Source: Patescibacteria group bacterium
GTDB lineage: Bacteria > Patescibacteriota > Microgenomatia > UBA1406
Reading direction: 5' to 3'
Length of the DNA: 64,000 nt
NCBI GenBank assembly: GCA_041665145.1
Contig: JBAYJK010000003.1
Span: 133,177-197,176, forward strand
A program made the translations under genes and the position numbers. This document shows, piece after piece, positions 44,401 through 51,958 of this stretch. The notes beneath the pieces are model-generated. The model had not been told where the DNA came from. It did no database searches and saw only the letters and a program-made list of their open reading frames with translations. Positions within the stretch are counted from its first letter, which is position 1. Each line of letters opens with the position of its first letter.

Positions 44401-45237
44401 GCCGGGAAGTTTCATTCTGTACGGTTGGTTCCCCGTAAAAATAAGCGTGTCGGTACCGGAATGAGGATTGGTATAAATAACCGGCCACCATGTCTGCATA
44501 AGTGTTACTGGCAGTTTACTTGCGGATTTCCAAACGAGTGTACCGTTTGTCGCATTCAACGCATACGCAAAAGAATCTGAAGCTGCGAAATACAAAATGC
44601 TGTTTTTATAAGCCGCTGAAATGTTAATCGGGTGTCCTACATTGTATCTCCAATCCAATTCTCCCTTGTTTACTGCATCATCGTTCGAGTAAATAGAGTA
44701 GAAATAACCGTCCCTATTCCCCAAATAGACACGGTTACCGACGACAACGGGGTTTGTTACATAACCCTGCCCCGCTCCGTCGTACGACCACAGTTTTTGG
44801 CCGTTGGTAATGTCGATTGCGTAGAGTCTTTTATCCACTCCTCCCACATATGCCACGCCGTTTACGATAGTCGGCGAATTTCCCAACGACATTTCCGTCG
44901 GAAAAACCCATTTAACACTTCCGGTAATTGCGTCCAGTGCGTACAACCCGCGGGAAGTAGAAACATATAAGGTGTCATCTATGACAACCAGTTGCACATT
45001 GTGTGGAATATACGCATCAAACGGTTTGTACCATTCTACGGATAACTGACCCGACACCTCCGCCGCCGTCCACGATGTCCGCTGCAAGTTTGCACCTGCC
45101 ATGTACCATGTATCGGTGAGATTGTCGCTCGCCTGAACATCCTGAGTTTTCCTCAATAAGAAGTTGCTGACAAAAAGAGAAATGACGCCTACCGCCACAA
45201 AAGTCATAAGGATATGGAAAGCAATTTTTTCTCGCAT
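41413..45237 (-). CDS. Giant membrane-anchored surface protein: PQQ-like beta-propeller, unassigned ~550-aa domain, P/T linker, FN3, LysM, CarboxypepD_reg-like, C-terminal TM
   Basis: PQQ-like repeats (LYALDAITGSVKW, LYAIDITNGQKLW, FAYALNATNGTLVW). PTSTPTSTPTPTVTPIP linker. FN3-like YYFRIRAVNGCKTGEWS. LysM YTVTSGDTLWSIAEKLFG. TMs at both ends. Confidence 0.8.
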   Translation of the reverse strand: MREKIAFHILMTFVAVGVISLFVSNFLLRKTQDVQASDNLTDTWYMAGANLQRTSWTAAEVSGQLSVEWYKPFDAYIPHNVQLVVIDDTLYVSTSRGLYALDAITGSVKWVFPTEMSLGNSPTIVNGVAYVGGVDKRLYAIDITNGQKLWSYDGAGQGYVTNPVVVGNRVYLGNRDGYFYSIYSNDDAVNKGELDWRYNVGHPINISAAYKNSILYFAASDSFAYALNATNGTLVWKSASKLPVTLMQTWWPVIYTNPHSGTDTLIFTGNQPYRMKLPGSNYVDLQNLDANEFLGPTYGTSGEIGPRDGQQLMDISSAAAYWETPTALEQSSDPNGLARDNHKPWRRTVFVLDATSGGEVTFDINSNGSADYAPFFWTGTRSGMRYPAVIGGDNLIYLANTYFVNTVSVTRGHAVGWDIGTPYIKTPFTQTRANDEPIAFSAGGNVIYYSMCCDRAVGAAHTTTGTNWLYYEYAGIDSQAPGYNIKTMGTDQDKSVEVFGSKTAGTGYNGAALGQNGVYGYHGEQSPPIPYIASDSTGRVYTKEGNAIVVFSAAGGGLQLPDATVTSTSQGLPEVDTADITARLENEITKVIAAGHLRPGYSTHGGFDPATLEQYGDDLTDYFHNTADTVLALSNAYPHVSSGLQTSIQTYLQSEMASYSPCTYRNNGWGGASRNSMGSALAGFDLPPDVEINTGTNPADWGTNFAGWAWPPYPLYAVWKYAQNTGANPATLFTSCSGKLGTPPSDTTLEAYPEALNAWIAGYKGYVELAKLANQPYATQETELNRLLALRVSNFPVTLNFPFSPDSHNSQRSIAVARNFMFLTPELGAHLSQNISSTMLTAYNLYNTVAPYWMIGFYSQAYGESSVETLYDYDALFNAQAWILGASRQKLRSFLDAPNFVRGDMFHIQHLVSILEATPTVLPTSTPTSTPTPTVTPIPLPDASPTPVSHAPSSTVSQTSSSVAAPVCSDQDVGKTVPGIYSAVIMDDHSIRLQFSAASDPTDHYSLQFGESSGNYTYGADTIGGKGTSEYIVKSLQSGTTYYFRIRAVNGCKTGEWSNEISATTSSPTLIRELKFVDSTLTATPLVCSLYTVTSGDTLWSIAEKLFGAGEKYQELVTANLSHYPSLKDTKNINVGWELRYDCPDDGKTSKPAQEKDKSEVLGTGYELKVAVVDTNKKPVAGATVTIHSKVQVQQTDTRGIAVFKNVASGNHRVLIAYDDYKGEQAINLKGNVARFDLHVIVEKKDSNLIPVVIGVSLIPATLILLVMFFIRRT

Positions 45238-45245
45238 TTAGAAAC

Positions 45246-45251
45246 ATTGTA
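45246..45251 (-). promoter_or_regulatory. -10 box TACAAT, 8 nt upstream of ATG 45237
   Basis: Minus strand reads TACAAT-gtttctaa-ATG. Confidence 0.4.
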
Positions 45252-45278
45252 TAACTTTTGTGACGAACATCACTAAAA

Positions 45279-45884
45279 TTATAACTGAGTTTTCAATAAA
45301 TGCGCAAGTCCGTATTTATAGAAAAAATCATTTGGATCCTCATTTGCATAGTATAAGGGTGCCATTTGCTGATATTGAACGATTAGCGTCTCAATCCATT
45401 TTTTTCCCGCATTTAAAATATACGCTTTACGTTTTTCAGGCGAAGCAATGTGACCACATCCACTTGTCCAGTTAATCGTGGCACTGGCGTTTTCAGCATA
45501 GTTTTCTAGCCCTCCCCAACCACAGTTCAACCAGACTAATGTACGTGCTAACTTAAGGGATGCGCCGTCGAAAGTAAGTCTTGTATCAAAATCAACAGGG
45601 TAACAGGCAATTCTCGAAAGGTCTTCATGAGCAGTAATAATGTTCATATCAACTCTCAGATAAGGGAATACCACTTTACCTCCTGTTGCATTACGACCGC
45701 TGGAAAACCAGTTTATCGTAGTATCAATCGGAAGCGCTGTTCCAAGACGGTAGATGACGTTGAAATAGGGTCCGGTAAAACGAAATCGAAGTGGGTTACC
45801 ATTGAATTTTCTTCCAAAAGCTAACCTAACCTGGTTAACATACTTTGCTTTGTCTAAGAAGGATGGTAATTTTTCGGCTGTCAT
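45279..45884 (-). CDS. Hypothetical protein (201 aa)
   Basis: Long ORF with no motif recognised. Start trimmed to ATG 45884, because the track's TTG start (45914) would translate tRNA-like repeat DNA. Confidence 0.5.
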   Translation of the reverse strand: MTAEKLPSFLDKAKYVNQVRLAFGRKFNGNPLRFRFTGPYFNVIYRLGTALPIDTTINWFSSGRNATGGKVVFPYLRVDMNIITAHEDLSRIACYPVDFDTRLTFDGASLKLARTLVWLNCGWGGLENYAENASATINWTSGCGHIASPEKRKAYILNAGKKWIETLIVQYQQMAPLYYANEDPNDFFYKYGLAHLLKTQL

Positions 45885-45890
45885 GTGTAA

Positions 45891-45950
45891 TGGTGGGTCA
45901 GCTAAGCTGACCAATCACCACGCTGAGCGTGGTGGGTCCAGCGGGACTTG
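45891..45950 (-). repeat. Direct-inverted-direct copies of the tRNA-Lys 3' terminus, forming two triloop hairpins
   Basis: Minus strand: CAAGTCCCGCTGGACCCACCA (45930-45950), hairpin CACCACGC-TCA-GCGTGGTG (45916-45934), hairpin GGTCAGC-TTA-GCTGACC (45896-45912), then GCTGACCCACCA (45891-45902). Confidence 0.8.
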
Positions 45951-45997
45951 CTCAACTGACCGTTGACGAGCCTTCAGGAGTCTTACGGGCAGTTAGT

Positions 45998-46012
45998 CCT
46001 GACTATGTCAGG
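45998..46012 (-). repeat. GC-rich triloop hairpin CCTGAC-ATA-GTCAGG (hairpin family member)
   Basis: Perfect 6-bp inverted repeat read directly. Related to the hairpins at 46041-46057 and 46065-46081. Confidence 0.7.
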
Positions 46013-46030
46013 GGAATCTGCTGTTACTTT

Positions 46031-46093
46031 GTGGGTCCAGCCCCGATTATATCGGGACAACCAACCCCGACTACGTCGGGACTGCTCTGCTGA
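46031..46093 (-). pseudogene. 3' half of a tRNA-shaped pseudogene (D-stem 3' strand, hairpin, variable region, hairpin, acceptor 3' strand)
   Basis: Minus strand: CAGCAGAGCAG-TCCCGACGTAGTCGGGG-TTGGTTG-TCCCGATATAATCGGGG-CTGGACCCAC. Flanking segments match tRNA-Lys, but the anticodon and T arms are replaced by triloop hairpins. Confidence 0.7.
46058..46090 (-). repeat. 33-bp direct repeat, copy 1
   Basis: caaccaaccccgactacgtcgggactgctctgc is identical to 46422-46454. I checked it base by base. Confidence 0.95.
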
Positions 46094-46103
46094 TTAATTT
46101 AGG

Positions 46104-46176
46104 TGGGTCCAGCGGGACTTGAACCCGCAACCAACTCCTTAAGAGGGAGCTGCTCTACCAATTGAGCTATAGACCC
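46104..46176 (-). tRNA. tRNA-Lys (anticodon CTT)
   Basis: Hand-folded cloverleaf: acceptor GGGTCTA/TGGACCC, D arm GCTC-AATTGGTA-GAGC, anticodon arm GCTCC-CTCTTAA-GGAGT, T arm GCGGG-TTCAAGT-CCCGC, discriminator A. CCA is not encoded (ACCT). Confidence 0.93.
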
Positions 46177-46409
46177 ATTATGCCTTTTAAGTAGACCTTA
46201 TTCTTCAACCCCTTCAAGTATCGCTCTCTCTTTACTGCCTCACCTCTCGTAAGAAAGTCCTCTGTATAGACAAGAACCCACGGCTTTCTAGTACTTGTAT
46301 ACTTATGCCTGCAACAATTATGCTCGACCAATCTTCTGTCTACATCATTAGTCGACCCAATATAAAATGACTTATCTTTTTCGCTCTGCAAAACATATAT
46401 ATGAAACAT
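46167..46409 (-). CDS. GIY-YIG nuclease family mini-protein (YhbQ/UPF0213-like, 80 aa)
   Basis: MFHIYVLQSEKDKSFYIGSTNDVDRRLVEHN..RE.. carries the GIY-YIG motifs. Its TAG stop (46167-46169) lies at tRNA-Lys positions 8-10. Start trimmed to ATG 46409. Confidence 0.85.
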   Translation of the reverse strand: MFHIYVLQSEKDKSFYIGSTNDVDRRLVEHNCCRHKYTSTRKPWVLVYTEDFLTRGEAVKRERYLKGLKNKVYLKGIMGL

Positions 46410-46418
46410 ATACAGTGT

Positions 46419-46472
46419 CCGCAACCAACCCCGACTACGTCGGGACTGCTCTGCCAATTGAGCTATAGACCC
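46419..46472 (-). pseudogene. 5' half of the tRNA-shaped pseudogene (acceptor 5' strand, D arm, hairpin, variable region, T-stem 5' strand)
   Basis: Minus strand: GGGTCTATAGCTCAATTGGCAGAGCAG-TCCCGACGTAGTCGGGG-TTGGTTGCGG. Positions 1-27 differ from tRNA-Lys by one base. Confidence 0.75.
46422..46454 (-). repeat. 33-bp direct repeat, copy 2
   Basis: Identical to 46058-46090. Together the two copies bracket 331 bp holding the GIY-YIG ORF and tRNA-Lys. Confidence 0.95.
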
Positions 46473-46487
46473 GAAAATACAAGGAAA

Positions 46488-46496
46488 ATTATAGCA
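46488..46496 (-). promoter_or_regulatory. Extended -10 box TGCTATAAT upstream of the tRNA fragment / GIY-YIG / tRNA-Lys unit
   Basis: The minus-strand TGCTATAAT ends 15 nt before the first G of the 5' tRNA fragment. Confidence 0.5.
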
Positions 46497-46508
46497 TAAA
46501 ATGCGCTT

Positions 46509-46664
46509 TCAGGTCGTGATAGTTAACCATACCGACCCAAGAATAACAACGAATATGGTCGCAAAAGGAATCCTGTATAAGACCATCTCAAACAAAAGCA
46601 TTACACACAACGTGTTTACCGCAAAGAAAAAATACGCAATTTTTTTTATTATTTCTGGTGACAT
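46509..46664 (-). CDS. Possible small membrane protein (51 aa)
   Basis: MSPEIIKKIAYFFFAVNTLCVMLLFEMVLYRIPFATIFVVILGSVWLTITT has two hydrophobic helices. AGGAAG lies 8 nt upstream of the ATG. It sits 60 nt downstream of the DUF2294 gene. Confidence 0.3.
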   Translation of the reverse strand: MSPEIIKKIAYFFFAVNTLCVMLLFEMVLYRIPFATIFVVILGSVWLTITT

Positions 46665-46724
46665 ACGACGAGCTTCCTGATTAGCTATCGGAATACTCGA
46701 CGACCAGAATAATACCCTGTTCGT

Positions 46725-47096
46725 TTAGTCTGCCGCTTCGAATTTTCTATCTAATATAAAAACCTCCAATCGCTCTCCACTTCGGGTGCTAATGTCGCTG
46801 TGGGAGCCGACCACTTTATAACCGAGGATTTTCGCGATTTCCGGACCCAATTCCTTTGTCGTTACTTCGTGTAACTGTTTTCTGAGATCTTTAACTATTC
46901 TATAACCGTGTTCCGCCTTTAAAAGCATTTCTTCCATCGGCATCAAACGCCCTTTCAGTCTCACGATCACCATATCGTCTACTATGTAAACGCGGGTTTC
47001 TCTCGGCCCAAAGCCAATATTTTTGGAGTAAAACGCAGCGACAATTTTGGAAACCGCATCTTCGTATTGACGTTTAGTTCTCGGTGTGACTGTCAT
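46725..47096 (-). CDS. DUF2294 family protein
   Basis: ..GFGPRETRVYIVDDMVIVRLKG.L.P.E..L.......V...R..L.......E..K..G.KVVGSHSDISTRSGERLEVFILD matches my recollection of DUF2294. Confidence 0.65.
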   Translation of the reverse strand: MTVTPRTKRQYEDAVSKIVAAFYSKNIGFGPRETRVYIVDDMVIVRLKGRLMPMEEMLLKAEHGYRIVKDLRKQLHEVTTKELGPEIAKILGYKVVGSHSDISTRSGERLEVFILDRKFEAAD

Positions 47097-47106
47097 AGAA
47101 GGGTAA

Positions 47107-47136
47107 ATTATACCTGAGCCGATGTGATACTGTCAA
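47107..47136 (-). promoter_or_regulatory. Consensus promoter TTGACA-18 nt-TATAAT, with the -10 box 10 nt upstream of ATG 47096
   Basis: Minus strand: TTGACA (47131-47136) and TATAAT (47107-47112), read directly. Confidence 0.55.
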
Positions 47137-47154
47137 CGCTTTTGAACTTCCTGC

Positions 47155-47185
47155 AAGGGTTAAACCCTTTAAGGGTTTAACCCTT
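47155..47185. repeat. Perfect 31-nt palindrome AAGGGTTAAACCCTT-T-AAGGGTTTAACCCTT
   Basis: Read directly. A half-unit, AAGGGTTAAACCCTT, recurs at 51959-51973 next to tRNA-His. Confidence 0.9.
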
Positions 47186-47194
47186 AAAGAAGTC

Positions 47195-47212
47195 TGGTGC
47201 CGGAGGGAATTG
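47195..47212 (-). pseudogene. Orphan tRNA 3' fragment (T loop/stem plus acceptor) ending in CCA
   Basis: The minus-strand CAATTCCCTCCGGCACCA matches the tRNA-Arg(TCG) T-arm/acceptor CAATTCCCTCCGGAAGCA, except in the acceptor. It lies 85 nt downstream of the intact gene. Confidence 0.65.
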
Positions 47213-47257
47213 TTCCGATGCTGTTTTCGAGAAACGAGTAATTACAGCATCGTGAAT

Positions 47258-47273
47258 CCTCGACGCAGTCGGG
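47258..47273 (-). repeat. Hairpin family member (CCCGAC-TGC-GTCGAG, one G-T pair)
   Basis: Plus strand: cctcgacgcagtcggg. Same CCCGAC/GTCGGG core as the hairpins in the tRNA-Lys locus. Confidence 0.55.
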
Positions 47274-47296
47274 AAACCCTTTATATATAGGTTCTG

Positions 47297-47368
47297 TGCT
47301 TCCGGAGGGAATTGAACCCTCATCACTGGTTCCGAAGACCAGTACTCTATCCATTGAGCTACAGAAGC
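47297..47368 (-). tRNA. tRNA-Arg (anticodon TCG)
   Basis: Hand-folded: acceptor GCTTCTG/CGGAAGC, D arm GCTC-AATGGATA-GAGT, anticodon arm CTGGT-CTTCGGA-ACCAG, T arm GAGGG-TTCAATT-CCCTC, discriminator A. No CCA encoded. Confidence 0.9.
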
Positions 47369-47384
47369 AGTCGACTACCCTATA

Positions 47385-47393
47385 TGGTAAAAT
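47385..47393 (+). promoter_or_regulatory. Extended -10 box TGGTAAAAT, 8 nt upstream of the tgt ATG at 47402
   Basis: TGGTAAAAT-tataacac-ATG, read directly. Confidence 0.45.
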
Positions 47394-47400
47394 TATAACA
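47392..47400 (-). promoter_or_regulatory. Extended -10 box TGTTATAAT for tRNA-Arg(TCG)
   Basis: The minus-strand TGTTATAAT lies 23 nt upstream of tRNA position +1 and overlaps the tgt -10 box by 2 nt on the opposite strand. Confidence 0.45.
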
Positions 47401-47401
47401 C

Positions 47402-48574
47402 ATGAAGTCCTTCACTTTCGAAATAAAACAGCGCTCCCCGGTAAGTAAAACCCGACTTGGCACTATCCATACACCCCATGGTGATATTGAAACTCCAGCG
47501 TTTGTTCCCGTCGGCACGAAGGCCACGGTTAAAAGCCTTATTCCCTCGGAAATTTCAAACTTAGGATATAACCTGCACTTTGTTAACACGTACCATATGC
47601 TTGTTCATCCGGGTCCTGAAGTTGTCAAAAAAGCTGGTGGTCTCCATAAATTTATGAATTGGGACAATTGTTTGATAACAGACAGTGGCGGCTTTCAAGT
47701 ATTCTCCCTCGCTTCTGTTATATTAAAGAAAAATGAGCATGGAGTTTTGTTCCGGGATCATTATTCGGGACAAACCATAGATTTAACACCCCGGTTCTCT
47801 ATTGAGACCCAAAGGTCACTTGGAGCGGACATCATCTTGCCGCTTGACGATTGCACTCCCTACCCTGTTACGGAAAAGAAAGCGCAAAAATCTCTTGCAT
47901 TAACTCAAAACTGGTTTCTTCAATCATACGAAACGTATAAACAAACCACTTCCGTGACTAAAAAACACCAGGCGTTGTACAAGATTATTCAAGGCAGCCT
48001 ATTTGAGAATTTAAGAAAAGAGTCCATCAAATTTTATCGTGATAATAACATCGAAACGGATGGCTGGGCTATTGGTGGTGTTTCTGTTGGAGAATCTAAA
48101 CCGGATATTTATGATATCACTAATGTGTGCATGGATCTTATCACGGGAGATAATCAGCCGGTACATCTCTTGGGAGTTGGAGAAGTCGATGACGTTTTTG
48201 ACATTCTTCATGCCGGTATCGACACCTTTGACTGCGTGCAACCGACACGCCTTGCCCGCATGGGTATGGCGTATAACTTTTCTATACCCAAATACTCCTT
48301 TTCAATAGAGGAAATGAAATACAAAGAAGACTTTAACCCTCTTGATTCACAATGCGGTTGCTATACCTGCACACACCATTCACGGTCGTATATTCATCAC
48401 TTGTTTAAAATGAAAGAACTTACCGGTTACCGCCTGATAACTATTCATAACCTCTTCATGATGCAAAAGCTTGTGCAAAGTATTAGAATAGCTGTTATTA
48501 ACAATACGTGGGAAGCAATTTACCATCAGTTCAAGCATGACGAGTTTACCGACCTTCACAAAATCTTTAATTGA
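47402..48574 (+). CDS. tgt: tRNA-guanine transglycosylase (queuine tRNA-ribosyltransferase)
   Basis: RLGTIHTPHGDIETPAFVPVGTKATVK, DSGGFQVFSL, LLGVGEVDD, FDCVQPTRLARMG and the Zn site CGCYTC..H. Confidence 0.93.
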   Translation: MKSFTFEIKQRSPVSKTRLGTIHTPHGDIETPAFVPVGTKATVKSLIPSEISNLGYNLHFVNTYHMLVHPGPEVVKKAGGLHKFMNWDNCLITDSGGFQVFSLASVILKKNEHGVLFRDHYSGQTIDLTPRFSIETQRSLGADIILPLDDCTPYPVTEKKAQKSLALTQNWFLQSYETYKQTTSVTKKHQALYKIIQGSLFENLRKESIKFYRDNNIETDGWAIGGVSVGESKPDIYDITNVCMDLITGDNQPVHLLGVGEVDDVFDILHAGIDTFDCVQPTRLARMGMAYNFSIPKYSFSIEEMKYKEDFNPLDSQCGCYTCTHHSRSYIHHLFKMKELTGYRLITIHNLFMMQKLVQSIRIAVINNTWEAIYHQFKHDEFTDLHKIFN

Positions 48575-50120
48575 GGCAATTACCGGAATAACGGAGAAAA
48601 AAACTGCGGACGACCTCGAAGCGGTAGACGTTTCAAAAACCGTTTCGTTTTTTGCGCTCATCTATGAGAAGATCCGTAATGTCATAGAATTCAAGGACGA
48701 GCATATCGTGCGCAGAAATGCGATAAACCGCATCGTAAACCGTCGACTGGTGTTCAACCCTAATCTGACTGACGAAGGCCTGTCTATAGCCAAAGAAATT
48801 GCGTGGGCCGGGTACTACAAGGGCGACAAGATTCCTGAAACAAAAATCACACAACTTGAGAATGCCGTGTCGTGGTATACCAGTCTCCGCCAGAATCTCG
48901 TCCGAGGGGAATCAGGCGCCAACGCCAAGTATTACGCAGGTTTTATCCGTGACCTTTTGGTTTGCCAAATTGAGGAAATATTCGCGGAGAAAGAGTTTCA
49001 GCTTATACGGACATTTCTTTTTTACTTCTACCAGGTTCTAAACCCGAATATTATTATTCAGGGTGAAGAAAAAAATAACAAAGATCTTACCTTTTATGTT
49101 GCGTGTGAACAGGTTTTTCTCAAAAGCGATAAGCCCTACCTGCGTTTTCATCTGTTCAAACTACTTTTTGAAGATTACCTGAAAGTGAAAGAAAAGGATA
49201 TGGTTACCAAACTCCCTGATTTCAAAAAAGCGTTCAAGTATATCGACAAACAAATCGATCGGCCTATTAACAGGAAAATATTCAGGTATCTCCGAAACCA
49301 ACGACCCGCATACCTTGTTCTTAAAGAGTTGGTATTGACTCATGCACACGAGTTGTCAACACTGTTCGACGATGAAGAAAAATTGAATGCAACAATCGAT
49401 GCTTTGTGTCGTGAAAAATACGAAGCTTCCCGTGAAAAACTTAAGCGTGCGGGAGTCAGAAGTTTTCTATACATTCTGTGCACGAAAATGATTTTTGTCA
49501 TCGTTCTTGAGTATCCGATTATGGTTGCCGCGGGTGGACTTAACCTGGTTGCTCTCGGAATTAATGCGGCACTTCCGCCGGTGCTTATGGCACTTTTTGT
49601 CTTATTGGTCTCTTTACCCAATGAAGAAAATACAAAAAAAATTATTGAGCGAATCGGTCAAGTGGTATATGGCCGGGAAATAGTCGACGTTACGTTCAAA
49701 GTAAGCCGATACCGCCCTCGAAGCTTCTTCTCAACGGCAGCATTCTGGACATTCTATCTTCTGACATTTGCAGTAACGTACTTGGGAATTGACCTGATTC
49801 TCGATGTATTTGAATTTGAGTGGTTCAGTAAGATCGTATTTTTCTTCTTCATCACTGCCGTATCTTTTTTCGGTTACCGCGTGAGACAGATGGCCATGGA
49901 ATACACGATAAAAGAAAAAGAAAGCATTCTTACCCCTGTTGTGGACTTCTTTATGATCCCTCTTATCTCTGTTGGAAAATGGCTTTCCAGTGAAATTTCG
50001 AGAATCAATGTTCTTATTTTTGTATTCGACTTCATAATAGAAGCCCCCTTCAAGGTGCTCTTCGAGGTAATCGAGGAATGGATTCACTTCGTCAATCGAC
50101 GAAAAGAGGATATTGTGTAG
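48537..50120 (+). CDS. Hypothetical large membrane protein (helical N-terminal ~300 aa plus 4-6 TM C-terminal half)
   Basis: 527-aa ORF with no catalytic motif recognised. Overlaps the tgt 3' end by 38 nt, so the start is uncertain. Confidence 0.55.
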   Translation: MTSLPTFTKSLIEAITGITEKKTADDLEAVDVSKTVSFFALIYEKIRNVIEFKDEHIVRRNAINRIVNRRLVFNPNLTDEGLSIAKEIAWAGYYKGDKIPETKITQLENAVSWYTSLRQNLVRGESGANAKYYAGFIRDLLVCQIEEIFAEKEFQLIRTFLFYFYQVLNPNIIIQGEEKNNKDLTFYVACEQVFLKSDKPYLRFHLFKLLFEDYLKVKEKDMVTKLPDFKKAFKYIDKQIDRPINRKIFRYLRNQRPAYLVLKELVLTHAHELSTLFDDEEKLNATIDALCREKYEASREKLKRAGVRSFLYILCTKMIFVIVLEYPIMVAAGGLNLVALGINAALPPVLMALFVLLVSLPNEENTKKIIERIGQVVYGREIVDVTFKVSRYRPRSFFSTAAFWTFYLLTFAVTYLGIDLILDVFEFEWFSKIVFFFFITAVSFFGYRVRQMAMEYTIKEKESILTPVVDFFMIPLISVGKWLSSEISRINVLIFVFDFIIEAPFKVLFEVIEEWIHFVNRRKEDIV

Positions 50121-50175
50121 CTCACCTTTCCTTAAATTTTGAATTTCAAATTTTGAATTTTGAATTTCTCGCGTG

Positions 50176-50249
50176 TGCCCCCGGACGGATTCGAACCGTC
50201 GACCTACTGCTTAGAAGGCAGTCGCTCTATCCAACTGAGCTACGGGAGC
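50176..50249 (-). tRNA. tRNA-Arg (anticodon TCT)
   Basis: Hand-folded: acceptor GCTCCCG/CGGGGGC, D arm GCTC-AGTTGGATA-GAGC, anticodon arm ACTGC-CTTCTAA-GCAGT, T arm GACGG-TTCGAAT-CCGTC, discriminator A. Confidence 0.92.
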
Positions 50250-50266
50250 ATTAACAATTACCGATT

Positions 50267-50275
50267 ATTATAACA
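50267..50275 (-). promoter_or_regulatory. Extended -10 box TGTTATAAT for tRNA-Arg(TCT)
   Basis: The minus-strand TGTTATAAT lies 17 nt upstream of tRNA position +1. Confidence 0.45.
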
Positions 50276-50280
50276 CGGCC

Positions 50281-50289
50281 TGCTATAAT
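50281..50289 (+). promoter_or_regulatory. Extended -10 box TGCTATAAT, 6 nt upstream of GTG 50296
   Basis: TGCTATAAT-tctact-GTG, read directly. Confidence 0.45.
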
Positions 50290-50295
50290 TCTACT

Positions 50296-51543
50296 GTGTT
50301 AAACTTTTTAAGAAAAGAGCTCGAGCATTACGGTAAAATGCCGAAGAATGCTCAACGCCTATTGCTTTCATATCTATTTAACGGTGCAGCGAATCCCCTA
50401 CTGTCAGTTTTTTTAAATGCGTACATCTGGCGAGTAGAACAAGATATTTTGCTTCTGGTGTACTATAACTTCAGCACGTTTATTGCCCTTATTATCGGCT
50501 TCTTTCTCAACGGATACTTTATCCGTAAGATAAAAGTGTCATACATGTATGCTATCGGCATAGTGCTTCTTGCAATCGGCTCCCTTTCCATTTTGTTTTT
50601 CACAGACATCAGTCCACTAACCATTACCATTTTCGGTTTCATTTCGGGATTAGGAAACGCATTTTATTGGGCAAACAGAAACTTTCTTTCACAGCTTGTG
50701 ACAAAAAGTGAATTTCGTAACTACTTTTCCGGGCTAGAAATGGCTCAGGATACTACCACGTATGTAATTGTACCTATCGTGCTTGGATGGTTTCTGGTTA
50801 CTGGAGAATTTTTGCACTTGTACTCGACGCAAAACGCATACGCAGTGGCGTCTATCGGAGCAATGATACTACTTGGCATCTCAGCAACAATTGTCTTAGT
50901 AGATACCTATCATCCTGTTGAAATTGAAAATATATTTTTAAAGAACGTAACTGACACCTGGATGGTGACACGCCTTATAACCTTCGGTGAGGGTTTGCTT
51001 AACGGAATTTCTTTCTTCCTGCCTACTGTATTAATACTGATGTTTGTTGGTAAAGAAAATGTACTTGGAACAGTAGATTCGGCACTTGCGTTTATAACAA
51101 TATTTATGAGTTATATTATTGGTCGTCATATTCGTATACAAGATCGGTATAAATTGATTATTATTTCTGCTGTGGTTACATTGCTGGGAGGAGCTTCTCT
51201 CTTATTTTTCTTTAATTCGATTGGAGTACTCGCCTATAATTTATTGAACGGTCTGGGAGTAACGTTTCTCTATTTGTCATCGAACCCAATGATCATGGAT
51301 ATAACCGACGACAGCCATAAAATTACCAACGGTAGTTTATATGCGTATGTTTTTGACCGTGAATTATTCCTGAATCTCGGAAGAATCACCGGTAGTTCCG
51401 TATTTCTGATACTGTTTGTATATCTTAATTTGACTGCAACACGAATAGCACCTGTTCTCATTGCTGGTGTAGAGCTTGTACTGGTTCTTGCTGGTTTACT
51501 GCTATTGAAACTTCACGCTAAGCGAGTTCCTGTGTTAAAATAG
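50296..51543 (+). CDS. MFS-type transporter (about 12 TM)
   Basis: 415 aa, uniformly hydrophobic with 12 predicted helices in a 6+6 arrangement. Start at GTG 50296 (leaderless geometry) or ATG 50338. Confidence 0.65.
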   Translation: MLNFLRKELEHYGKMPKNAQRLLLSYLFNGAANPLLSVFLNAYIWRVEQDILLLVYYNFSTFIALIIGFFLNGYFIRKIKVSYMYAIGIVLLAIGSLSILFFTDISPLTITIFGFISGLGNAFYWANRNFLSQLVTKSEFRNYFSGLEMAQDTTTYVIVPIVLGWFLVTGEFLHLYSTQNAYAVASIGAMILLGISATIVLVDTYHPVEIENIFLKNVTDTWMVTRLITFGEGLLNGISFFLPTVLILMFVGKENVLGTVDSALAFITIFMSYIIGRHIRIQDRYKLIIISAVVTLLGGASLLFFFNSIGVLAYNLLNGLGVTFLYLSSNPMIMDITDDSHKITNGSLYAYVFDRELFLNLGRITGSSVFLILFVYLNLTATRIAPVLIAGVELVLVLAGLLLLKLHAKRVPVLK

Positions 51544-51560: not shown

Positions 51561-51623
51561 TTGGTGGCTCCCGCCCGCCACGCAAGACGAGCTTGCGAGG
51601 CTTTGCGGGCAGGGTAGCTCAAT
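51561..51623 (+). pseudogene. Displaced tRNA-His 5' fragment (G-1 to position 16) interrupted by a 44-nt GC-rich hairpin
   Basis: TTGGTGGCT (51561-51569), then the insert cccgcccgccacgcaagacgagcttgcgaggctttgcgggcagg (51570-51613), then GTAGCTCAAT (51614-51623). Both flanks are identical to 51871-51889 of the intact gene. Confidence 0.75.
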
Positions 51624-51626
51624 GAG

Positions 51627-51866
51627 ATGTTATACTTTACATACGTCTTAAAAAGCACTGTCGATAATAAGTTATATGTTGGGTGGACTAATAATCTTAG
51701 GCAAAGATTTGAAAGCCATAATAAAGGTTTGGTCGAAGCTACTAAGCATAGACGTCCGTTAACATTAATTTATTACGAGGCAGGAATAAGCAAAGAAAAA
51801 GCAATAAGTAGAGAGAAATACTTTAAAACAGGCTTTGGCAGACGTTTTTTGTTAAGCAGAATTTAA
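51627..51866 (+). CDS. GIY-YIG nuclease family mini-protein (YhbQ/UPF0213-like, 79 aa)
   Basis: MLYFTYVLKSTVDNKLYVGWTNNLRQRFESHN...REKYFK carries the GIY-YIG motifs. Its stop lies 6 nt before G-1 of tRNA-His. Confidence 0.85.
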   Translation: MLYFTYVLKSTVDNKLYVGWTNNLRQRFESHNKGLVEATKHRRPLTLIYYEAGISKEKAISREKYFKTGFGRRFLLSRI

Positions 51867-51872
51867 ATAATT

Positions 51873-51947
51873 GGTGGCTGTAGCTCAATTGGTTAGAGCG
51901 CTGCCCTGTGGAGGCAGAGGTTGCGGGTTCAAGTCCCGTCAGCCACC
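51873..51947 (+). tRNA. tRNA-His (anticodon GTG) with encoded G-1
   Basis: G-1 plus acceptor GTGGCTG/CAGCCAC, D arm GCTC-AATTGGTTA-GAGC, anticodon arm CTGCC-CTGTGGA-GGCAG, T arm GCGGG-TTCAAGT-CCCGT, discriminator C73 opposite G-1. Confidence 0.93.
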
Positions 51948-51958
51948 CATTCAACTGT

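Follow-up and report, generated by a model that had tools for sequence, protein, structure and literature searches.

The DNA examined here (the window) is a stretch of 64,000 nt from a Patescibacteria group bacterium (GenBank assembly GCA_041665145.1, contig JBAYJK010000003.1, positions 133,177 to 197,176). It contains two short open reading frames (ORFs) for GIY-YIG nucleases, one at an intact tRNA-Lys(CTT) gene (the Lys locus) and one at an intact tRNA-His(GTG) gene (the His locus); hmmsearch against the six-frame translation of the 64 kb identified no other GIY-YIG gene (the Lys-linked ORF scored E 1e-39). At both loci, a partial copy of the tRNA, interrupted by a palindrome, accompanies the ORF. 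Based on comparison with related loci, which are referred to below by L numbers, the Lys locus is probably one member of a large family of elements in which a nuclease ORF lies between an intact target and partial copies of that target.

Layout of the Lys and His loci

A repeat search of the window identified the 33-bp direct repeat CAACCAACCCCGACTACGTCGGGACTGCTCTGC at 46058-46090 and 46422-46454. The two copies are exact, as the original prediction from the sequence alone had stated; they lie 364 nt apart (start to start), and the repeat lengthens to 38 nt at 95% identity. By hand calculation, ~3e-11 exact 33-mer repeats per 64 kb would be expected by chance. The 331-bp interval between the copies (46091-46421) holds a 9-nt linker, a further 3 nt of tRNA homology, an 80-aa GIY-YIG ORF, tRNA-Lys(CTT) and an 11-nt spacer, all on the minus strand; Pfam, ARAGORN and Rfam agreed with the prediction that this ORF and this tRNA are all that lies between the copies. 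The features of the locus, in minus-strand order, are as follows.

46488..46496, minus strand: putative extended -10 promoter element TGCTATAAT, read from the sequence, upstream of the pseudo-tRNA-Lys 5' fragment
46419..46472, minus strand: pseudo-tRNA-Lys 5' fragment, 54 nt; tRNA positions 1-26, hairpin hpA in place of the anticodon arm, positions 44-53 (TTGGTTGCGG)
46422..46454, minus strand: direct repeat copy 1, 33 bp, exact; tRNA positions 18-26, hpA, TTGGTTG (positions 44-50)
46429..46445, minus strand: hairpin hpA copy 1, TCCCGACGTAGTCGGGG; 7-bp stem, 3-nt loop, 17 nt, the length of the replaced anticodon arm
46167..46409, minus strand: GIY-YIG nuclease ORF, 80 aa; PF01541, standalone SLX1/UPF0213 (YhbQ) type
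46102..46176, minus strand: intact tRNA-Lys(CTT); ARAGORN, and Rfam RF00005 at 73.9 bits
46031..46090, minus strand: pseudo-tRNA-Lys 3' fragment; positions 18-26 (GCAGAGCAG), hpA, TTGGTTG, hairpin hp2 in place of the T arm, acceptor 3' strand CTGGACCCAC
46058..46090, minus strand: direct repeat copy 2, 33 bp, exact; contains hpA copy 2 at 46065-46081
46041..46057, minus strand: hairpin hp2, TCCCGATATAATCGGGG; 17 nt, in place of the 17-nt T arm
45931..46014, minus strand: older remnant; a third hairpin, CCTGAC ATA GTCAGG (45998-46012), then a 20-nt exact copy of the tRNA-Lys 3' end (45931-45950)
45896..45934, minus strand: two terminal hairpins, CACCACGCTCAGCGTGGTG and GGTCAGCTTAGCTGACC, which end the array directly before the next gene

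The upstream fragment reads GGGTCTATAGCTCAATTGGCAGAGCAG, then the hairpin TCCCGACGTAGTCGGGG, then TTGGTTGCGG. It matches the 5' end of the intact tRNA-Lys over 27 nt with 96% identity and receives no ARAGORN or Rfam call. Positions 1-18 of the tRNA (46472..46455) lie outside the upstream repeat copy; at the other end, the tRNA homology continues for 3 nt past the repeat (TTGGTTGCGG), a detail missing from the original prediction. Outside the downstream repeat copy lie the second 17-nt hairpin and CTGGACCCAC (46057..46031). The 33-bp repeat is the overlap between the upstream copy, which covers tRNA positions 1-53, and the downstream copy, which covers positions 18-73. Hairpin hp2 differs from hpA by a compensatory change (C-G to T-A). 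The region 45896-46444 holds 6 of the 16 GC-rich perfect hairpins of the window; of the two terminal hairpins, the first starts within the tRNA 3' end (CCACC), and the pair, which may act as a terminator or belong to another element, is kept in L052 (620-658) and L069 (~1845-1885).

The tRNA-like halves outside the repeats were part of the original prediction, and they are present. When one repeat copy and the 331-bp interval are removed, they join into a sequence of 78-79 nt that folds as a cloverleaf (minimum free energy -37.6 kcal/mol), with two 7-bp triloop hairpins standing where the anticodon and T arms belong. ARAGORN does not call this reconstituted sequence as a tRNA, and in an Rfam scan of 45700-46700 the intact tRNA-Lys was the sole match. 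A group I intron or other known RNA family at the Lys locus was rejected: Rfam at gathering thresholds over the whole window and the permissive scan of 45700-46700 returned intact tRNAs only. Weak matches to Plastid-ycf2, RAGATH-24, YrlA and mascRNA are sub-threshold and are accounted for by the tRNA itself. A sub-threshold RAGATH-24 match at 45796-45884 on the minus strand (21.8 bits against a gathering threshold of 45.3, E=0.12) overlaps the start of the next ORF and is probably due to chance.

The final three codons and the TAG stop of the Lys-linked ORF fall within the tRNA-Lys gene (tRNA positions 1-10). Throughout the Lys clade (window 46167-46176; L051, L052, L053, L058, L070 and L074), the tRNA residues U8-A9-G10 form the stop codon of the ORF; an mRNA released from a co-transcript by RNase P would thus lack a stop codon, and this loss may act as an inbuilt brake on expression of the nuclease. 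The pseudo-fragment, the ORF and tRNA-Lys could form a single transcript from the predicted TGCTATAAT promoter, and a TGTTATAAT box also lies 5' of the ORF in the relatives L051 and L052.

The His locus (51563-51948), which was absent from the original prediction, repeats the same design on the plus strand.

51563..51623, plus strand: pseudo-tRNA-His 5' fragment; GGTGGCT (positions 1-7), palindrome hpB, GTAGCTCAAT (positions 8-17)
51570-51613, plus strand: 44-nt palindrome hpB, CCCGCCCGCC...GCGGGCAGG, which splits the pseudo-tRNA-His
51627..51866, plus strand: GIY-YIG ORF, 79 aa; PF01541, E=1.1e-16, 61.3 bits; follows the pseudo-fragment after a 3-nt linker
51874..51948, plus strand: intact tRNA-His(GTG); ARAGORN and Rfam; begins 7 nt past the ORF stop codon

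The His-linked and Lys-linked ORFs share 31% identity. The His-linked ORF is 100% identical to P0282, annotated as [quoted passage not shown] and has 680 homologs, most of which are 65-75% identical to it. Look-ups of the exact proteins gave no record for either window ORF; the His-linked ORF nevertheless has the annotated entry P0282, whereas the public gene-position collection has no gene with the exact product of the Lys-linked ORF. Gene callers may systematically overlook ORFs that overlap a tRNA.

Independent data back the repeat structure at the Lys locus. A separate ENA assembly (L048, a 104.8-kb contig) is 100% identical to the window over 45169-51096, and Logan contigs from two other samples (L049 and L050) are also 100% identical, both of them stopping at 46425, within the repeat. 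Repeats can be collapsed or duplicated in metagenome assemblies, and the Logan contigs do end at this one; however, their ends fall exactly inside the 33-mer, where a k=31 graph would be expected to branch at a true 33-bp repeat. The same structure is present in the 104.8-kb contig, and L052, L074, L070 and L058 share the architecture, each lineage with sequence of its own. An assembly artefact or chimera is therefore extremely improbable, and we dismissed it on the evidence of L048-L050.

The nuclease family and its association with partial target copies

The Lys-linked ORF matches the Pfam GIY-YIG family (PF01541) with E=9.7e-17 and 61.5 bits (cut-off 22.6). When a profile of this ORF and its homologs was searched against PDB, the matches included the UPF0213 proteins EF2693 (1ywl, 3.7e-13) and BH0048 (1zg2, 8.3e-13) and, at 1e-7 to 1e-8, the SLX1 structure-specific endonuclease (7cq2, 2.7e-8); neither UvrC nor I-TevI was matched at E<=0.01. 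Residues Y5, Y16, G18, R26, H30 and E62 are invariant or nearly so in the alignment of the ORF and its homologs, and the ORF has the catalytic Tyr of GIY, the Tyr of YIG, the Arg, the His and the metal-binding Glu. Judged from these residues and domain matches, the Lys-linked and His-linked proteins are probably active nucleases. The Lys-linked product consists of the catalytic domain only, with no accessory domain, and the DNA-binding module that would give long-site specificity is absent from the 80-aa protein. No NCBIfam family scored above its cut-off, the group I intron endonuclease model reaching 21.6 bits against a cut-off of 56. The family is large, with 31,373 clusters at 50% identity at E<=1e-3 and 9,824 at E<=1e-10.

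A scan of one genome per species, using a profile of the six closest sequences, gave 47 loci that bear relatives of the ORF. These loci belong to Bacteroidota, Acidobacteriota, Ignavibacteria, Elusimicrobia, Desulfobacterota and other “Deltaproteobacteria,” Gammaproteobacteria, Verrucomicrobia and two lineages of the candidate phyla radiation (CPR). With the closest homologs (L051-L053), metagenome loci and relatives of the His-linked ORF added, the survey comprised 64 non-redundant ORF loci, and loci with related nucleases span at least eight phyla.

A co-oriented tRNA lies within 250 nt of the ORF in 53 of the 64 loci; none has an opposite-strand tRNA alone, and the remaining 11 have no tRNA within that distance. 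Partial copies of the adjacent tRNA, outside any called tRNA, were detected at E<=1e-3 in 45 of the 53 tRNA-linked loci, and the tRNA segments that these copies keep are ~100% identical to the intact tRNA. Two arrangements recur: a pseudo-5' copy, the ORF and then the intact tRNA (type A, 33 loci), and the intact tRNA, the ORF and then a pseudo-3' copy (type B, 16 loci); four loci combine both. The targets include more than 20 tRNA species. The original prediction had called the Lys arrangement the mirror image of integrases that regenerate tRNA 3' ends; this holds as an analogy only, as no integrase is present and the duplicated part is a 5' copy upstream in the 33 type A loci and a 3' copy downstream in the 16 type B loci.

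The longest exact repeat common to both flanks of the ORF has a median length of 26 nt, versus 8 nt in controls, and exact flanking repeats of at least 15 nt are present in 39 of 55 loci but in 1 of 52 controls. Among these 55 loci, the length of the exact repeat runs from 8 to 87 nt and the spacing between copies from 275 to 583 nt (364 in the window). Their content also varies: some consist of tRNA 5' parts and others of 3' parts, and some include a promoter (L019, L046 and L093) or a terminator (L012 and L015). This variation in length and content means that there is no fixed target-site duplication, and it contradicts the proposal that the 33 bp are a duplication of the transposase type. 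In most loci the repeats enclose the ORF alone, without a tRNA. Hairpin-bearing direct repeats around the ORF, with or without the tRNA, are present in L052, L074, L070, L058, L013, L017, L033, L006 and L016.

Conserved palindromes, changes of target and the history of the loci

The palindromic insertions in the pseudo-copies are GC-rich and 16-86 nt long. They occupy the D-loop (19/20 to 21/22), the anticodon loop (35/36 or 36/37) or the T loop, or they replace whole tRNA arms, most often exactly positions 27-43. The motif hpA has the form [T/C]CCCG-NN-(2-4-nt loop)-N'N'-CGGG[A/G], usually 16-17 nt in total, and is found in Flavobacteriaceae, Bacteroidales, Acidobacteriota, Ignavibacteria, Elusimicrobia, Desulfobacterota and CPR bacteria. 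Its density is 2.28 per kb within 150 nt of the ORF and 0.128 per kb elsewhere in the same loci, an 18-fold difference. Among 43 distinct hpA-type sequences, delimited by the conserved 5-bp base of the stem, 41 have at least two additional inner base pairs, compared with 10.6% of shuffles, and ten different dinucleotide pair types occur at the inner positions; in loci that were not picked by a hairpin pattern, a hand count gave 31 of 33. The inner pairs covary, and this indicates that an intra-strand hairpin, whether in single-stranded DNA, as a cruciform or in RNA, is under selection.

Other origins of the palindromes were considered. A double-stranded DNA operator of a dimeric protein was set aside, since covarying inner stem positions point to intra-strand pairing, as were repair scars of the P-nucleotide type, since the hairpins are not derived from their flanks and are conserved across unrelated hosts. 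A genome-wide repeat resembling repetitive extragenic palindromic (REP) elements was dismissed: the hpA pattern is restricted in the window to the Lys locus, and hairpins of these kinds are confined, within the 64 kb, to the two GIY-YIG loci. In the tRNA-Ala clade of Acidobacteriota (L026, L028, L029 and L031, ~2238-2263), the stop codon of the ORF (TGA, TAA or TAG) lies inside the hpA loop (TCC CGG TGA...), so that ORF and palindrome overlap. Double hairpins occur in L027 (1850-1880 and 1944-1977) and L046 (1942-1971). In L027, TCCGCCGGAGGCGGA adjoins its reverse complement to form a 30-nt perfect palindrome within a 34-nt perfect hairpin at anticodon-loop position 36/37, and a similar hairpin pair lies ~30 nt upstream of the pseudo-tRNA.

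The second motif, hpB (CCCGCCCGC...GCGGGCGGG, 37-86 nt), marks the clade of the His-linked ORF and occurs in both orientations (L082 versus L085). The hpB in the tRNA-His pseudo-copy of the window is identical at 43 of 44 positions to that in a tRNA-Asn pseudo-copy of another organism (L098), despite only ~71% identity between the two ORFs; hpB was further seen in L068, L078, L082, L085, L093 and L100. Relatives of the His-linked ORF with 67-72% identity lie at tRNA-Gln(ctg) (L082 and L085), tRNA-Val(cac) (L078) and tRNA-Asn(gtt) (L093 and L098), and in each of these target-switched relatives hpB splits a left-hand partial copy of the target. In L100 (900-1300), the ORF and hpB are located in the 5' end of a gene for an NAD-dependent epimerase/dehydratase (GGAGFIG motif): a left copy, CTTATAACCGGAGGAGCGGGATTCA-hpB-TTGGGTCC, lies 5' of the ORF, the intact gene (MKILITGGAGFIGSH...) lies 3', and ~35 nt of the gene are duplicated. 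The general formula is therefore a palindrome-split partial target, the ORF and the intact target, and the target may be something other than a tRNA. In a neighbor-joining tree, the ORFs form clades that correspond, across phyla, to the tRNA species and to the side; for example, one Gln(ttg) clade joins Elusimicrobia and Ignavibacteria, and one Ser(tga) clade joins Bacteroidota and a CPR bacterium.

These changes of target bear on the view that the ORFs are host housekeeping repair nucleases of the UPF0213 type, co-transcribed with tRNAs, with the partial copies as decaying duplications and the hairpins as unrelated repeats. Prokaryotic Slx1-like proteins are held to be mainly vertically inherited repair nucleases (Dunin-Horkawicz et al. 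2006, PMC1564403), with no link to tRNA genes mentioned in that study, and the Lys locus is indeed syntenic and conserved among relatives. Such a view does not fit two divergent copies within 6 kb at different tRNAs, ~70% identical relatives at different targets (one of them a protein-coding gene), or an ORF that is always positioned exactly between the repeats. The palindromes, moreover, are 18-fold enriched and sit at defined tRNA positions, and random decay would not swap a 17-nt arm for a conserved 17-nt hairpin in several phyla. We regard a housekeeping role of this kind as very unlikely.

Pseudo-tRNAs were also found in tandem, complete or alone. L001 has one pseudo-unit more than its near-identical relatives L002 and L003, tandem units of an ORF and a tRNA-like sequence are present in L016 and L074, and in L077 three identical 80-nt hairpin-substituted tRNA-Lys units follow the intact tRNA, with similar arrays in L059 and L058. 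Solo remnants of hairpin-substituted tRNA-Lys occur in L062 and L069; pseudo-tRNA sites without an ORF are those of L077, L059, L069 and L062, and the ORF of L046 has decayed and contains stop codons. Complete hairpin-substituted tRNA-like genes, that is, the uninterrupted form anticipated in the original prediction, exist in L023, L025, L029, L041 and L072. ARAGORN miscalls such genes as tRNA-Leu(cag), Val(aac) or “???(ttca)” in L023 (1777-1853 and 2233-2309), L029 (2219-2287) and L041 (1650-1726 and 1761-1837). The two hpB arms in L078 (1440-1650) enclose an intact tRNA-Val(cac), and this hpB in turn splits the D-loop of another tRNA-like gene (GGATCCGTAGCTCAGGGGTTA...GGATCCACCA).

A role at the RNA level would make the pseudo-tRNA pieces mRNA leaders or trailers, RNase P/Z sites, stability elements, protein-binding decoys or parts of a system resembling type III toxin-antitoxin pairs, in which a small nuclease is combined with an array of structured RNA repeats. 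Selection for a single-strand hairpin, as the stem covariation implies, would suit such a role, as would the apparent placement of pseudo-fragment, ORF and tRNA under one promoter and the coupling of translation and RNA structure where the stop codon of the ORF is supplied by the tRNA (Lys clade) or by the loop of the hairpin (Ala clade). The identical 80-97-nt pseudo-units in tandem after the tRNA in L077 and L058 are also compatible with it, and an Slx1-like domain has been noted in fusion with the tRNA methyltransferase TrmH (PMC1564403). However, the pseudo-pieces are not a conserved RNA: they copy whichever tRNA or protein-coding gene (L100) adjoins, no Rfam family is matched, and many truncated pseudo-copies cannot build an acceptor stem. 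The orientation of hpB relative to transcription goes both ways, the leader is absent from the syntenic locus L051, and repeats that are local tRNA copies speak against a dedicated antitoxin of the ToxIN type. We consider an RNA-level role quite unlikely.

The Lys-linked ORF has its closest relatives (56-68% identical) directly upstream of tRNA-Lys(CTT) in every case. L052 has its own 33-nt repeat, AGAGCAGTCCCGACGAAGTCGTGGATTGGTTGC, around the ORF and tRNA, both copies carrying one lineage-specific hairpin variant, and the two terminal hairpins of the window recur there; L053 has a pseudo-5' fragment with TCCCGACTTGTCGGGA. The order of pseudo-5' fragment, hairpin, ORF and tRNA-Lys, together with the stem TCCCGAC/GTCGGGA, is kept in the L052 and L053 lineages. 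A hairpin-based DNA search of Joint Genome Institute (JGI) metagenomes yielded 21 further tRNA-Lys loci, ten of them with the ORF, and the layout of the window is reproduced in L074, L070 and L058. L051 is syntenic (MpsC gene, 51-aa ORF, promoter, GIY-YIG ORF, tRNA-Lys) and has no pseudo-5' fragment. The flanking halves and repeats are thus shared by L052, L074, L070 and L058, and L051 lacks the upstream half.

Conservation of the Lys layout over 56-68% nuclease identity means that the arrangement is ancient in this clade, and it is not a fresh insertion. The perfect identity of the 33-bp copies would instead reflect gene conversion or recent recombination between them; comparison of the lineages suggests that repeat copies are homogenized within each genome and that the pseudo-5' fragment can be lost. 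The layered remnants downstream of the Lys locus fit repeated rounds of duplication or recombination. In L052 (520-545), an inverted copy of the tRNA 5' end (TTGAGCTATAAACC) lies between the intact tRNA-Lys and the downstream pseudo-copy, which points to inversion or template-switch events within arrays.

Taken literally, the original prediction was that a cassette of the GIY-YIG ORF and tRNA-Lys had transposed into a 78-nt hairpin pseudo-tRNA and left a 33-bp target-site duplication. The exact repeat does enclose nothing but the ORF and the tRNA, and the order of pseudo-5' part, ORF, tRNA and pseudo-3' part is shared by L052, L074 and L070. Complete pseudo-tRNAs (L023, L025, L029, L041 and L072), ORF-less ones (L077, L059 and L069) and the nested tRNA-Val of L078 also speak for it. 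Against this stand the flanking repeats, which vary from 8 to 87 nt and at times include a promoter or terminator, the enclosure of the ORF alone in most loci, an upstream pseudo-tRNA that is unsplit and complete in L025 and L023, and the absence of the upstream half from L051. The layout kept at 56-68% protein identity indicates that the repeat is not an untouched insertion footprint, and an identical cassette at a second locus was not found. Characterized GIY-YIG enzymes, furthermore, leave 2-nt overhangs (SegB, PMC2330249) rather than 33-nt staggers. Transposition of such a cassette is unlikely. What stands of the predicted footprint is a recombining, mobile-type system in tRNA genes that leaves an intact tRNA; the fixed target-site duplication and the recent insertion do not.

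A homing-type reading and its precedents

We interpret the Lys and His loci as probable representatives of a selfish, homing-type GIY-YIG element that spreads via tRNA-derived homology arms and makes local duplications. The ORF would sit between an intact conserved target, usually a tRNA, and one or more partial target copies, and the element would duplicate the part of the target that it interrupts. Because an intact target copy is kept beside the ORF (a tRNA in 53 of the 64 loci, the epimerase gene in L100), the host retains a working gene. The tRNA-derived flanks could serve as homology arms both for recombinational spread and for local tandem amplification, and the palindromes would be cis-elements of the same system.

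For the palindromes, we give similar weight to two roles. They could be a structured DNA substrate of a structure-specific nuclease without a DNA-binding domain. Alternatively, they could be small mobile inserts that come to lie in the cleavage site of the dispensable copy and thereby disable it; a palindrome in the essential copy would then be lethal, and hence never observed. More tentatively, the SLX1-like nuclease and the hpA and hpB palindromes could together constitute a new class of bacterial mobile element, functionally analogous to the pairing of REP sequences with their transposases (RAYT-REP), a possibility that we consider somewhat doubtful. In such an element the enzyme would recognize hairpin, cruciform or cloverleaf DNA of tRNA genes and of its own palindromes, and cleavage would lead to recombination that duplicates part of the target and leaves a palindrome in the dispensable copy, at the loop or arm that was cut. 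The same recombination would move the ORF to new tRNA genes, and occasionally to protein-coding genes, across phyla.

Several points weigh against the homing-type reading. The protein has no DNA-binding domain, so site recognition lacks an explanation, and the intact target beside the ORF is identical to a naive target, so classical homing immunity is not accounted for. Long vertical residence would fit the conservation of the Lys layout across 56-68% protein identity equally well. No near-identical pair of filled and empty alleles was found for the Lys locus, a search of JGI metagenomes with the flanking MpsC protein giving no relatives, and no relatives were found in IMG/VR viral contigs, so there is no obvious vector. 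Finally, the survey drew its loci by peptide or hairpin pattern and does not sample the 31,373-cluster family at random.

Each component of the arrangement has a precedent, namely GIY-YIG homing genes, target-duplicating mitochondrial ORFs, mobile palindromes and tRNA islands. SegB is a phage-borne protein of ~220 aa with a DNA-binding domain. In T4, it is a GIY-YIG homing endonuclease that is encoded in a tRNA cluster, recognizes a tRNA T-arm motif and is inherited preferentially along with neighboring tRNAs (PMC2330249); in T4/T6, it drives tandem amplification of the tRNA-segB segment through homologous recombination and microhomology (PMC13096335), and it has been placed in the homing endonuclease (HEase) cluster of the GIY-YIG superfamily (PMC1564403). 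As with SegB, the present genes lie among tRNA genes, and SegB shares with the proposed element a target in tRNA gene DNA and spread with adjacent tRNAs by recombination. Unlike SegB, the Lys-linked protein is an 80-aa catalytic domain of the SLX1/UPF0213 lineage, the relatives occur in cellular genomes of many phyla, and conserved palindromes, a feature not reported for SegB, lie in the partial tRNA copies.

In fungal and chytrid mitochondria, endonuclease ORFs reportedly bring a replacement gene end with them (Allomyces atp6/ORF360), in work attributed to Paquin, Laforest and Lang from 1994 and 2000. Mitochondrial double-hairpin elements and GC clusters are small GC-rich mobile palindromes that occur alongside endonuclease ORFs. 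The likeness lies in a nuclease ORF within a conserved gene, duplication of the interrupted part and an intact gene beside a pseudo-fragment; the double hairpins of L027, including the pair upstream of its pseudo-tRNA, and of L046 resemble the mitochondrial double hairpins. The mitochondrial cases differ in being organellar, with protein-coding targets and in-frame duplication of the 3' end, whereas the present loci are bacterial, involve mainly tRNAs, duplicate either end and have a palindrome at a defined position of the pseudo-copy.

Short conserved palindromes are also known from REP elements and bacterial interspersed mosaic elements (BIMEs) with RAYT transposases and from Rickettsia palindromic elements. 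REP/RAYT systems and the present loci share covarying conserved palindromes at specific sites, sometimes in genes, and one dedicated protein; here, however, the partner is a GIY-YIG nuclease rather than a Y1 HUH transposase, and the palindromes are confined to target copies beside the ORF. A transposon or insertion sequence also differs: the sole ORF between the Lys repeats is the nuclease, and no transposase or recombinase is present. Group I introns have been described in tRNA genes of Patescibacteria, with the intron at site 35/36 (PMC13011429), in a study that does not mention GIY-YIG genes, hairpins or duplications. The phylum and the class of target are the same, and L004 and L046 have hairpin insertions at 35/36; unlike intron-bearing genes, tRNA-Lys and tRNA-His of the window are continuous, and no group I intron was matched in Rfam.

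The combination of a minimal SLX1/UPF0213 nuclease, partial duplication of a tRNA or other conserved gene and conserved palindromes in tRNA loops or arms, spread across bacterial phyla, was not found described in the literature searched, which excluded most subscription journals; the original prediction likewise knew of no described element with such an architecture. A selfish-element context would give the standalone UPF0213/SLX1-like clade, whose function is otherwise unknown, a testable function. If the reading of nuclease and palindromes as one system is true, a substantial part of the UPF0213/YhbQ proteins, so far held to be repair enzymes, would be recast as selfish elements. Duplication of the interrupted part would offer a homing-type route into essential, intron-less RNA genes without a ribozyme, and a nuclease without a DNA-binding domain, together with a covarying hairpin of 16-17 nt, is a compact candidate for structure-guided DNA targeting. 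The tandem arrays parallel SegB-driven tRNA amplification and suggest nuclease-driven dynamics of tRNA genes in cellular genomes too. Miscalls of hairpin pseudo-tRNAs could inflate or distort tRNA inventories and affect codon-usage inferences in metagenome-assembled genomes.

Genomic islands and prophages at tRNA genes (attL/attR) also leave an intact tRNA and a displaced partial copy as a direct repeat. At the present loci, in contrast, no integrase or recombinase lies between the repeats, the cargo is one 240-bp ORF, the duplicated part is often 5' or internal, and the repeat (positions 18-50) is interrupted by a palindrome. True tRNA islands beside the same tRNAs, in L087 and L098, look quite different. 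Large serine recombinase genes lie there directly 3' of the module-bearing tRNA-Gln or tRNA-Asn (L087, 1515-2637; L098, 1327-2246), and L085 and L088 have an identical ORF and tRNA without a recombinase; the recombinase looks like part of an ordinary integrative island at the same tRNA 3' end.

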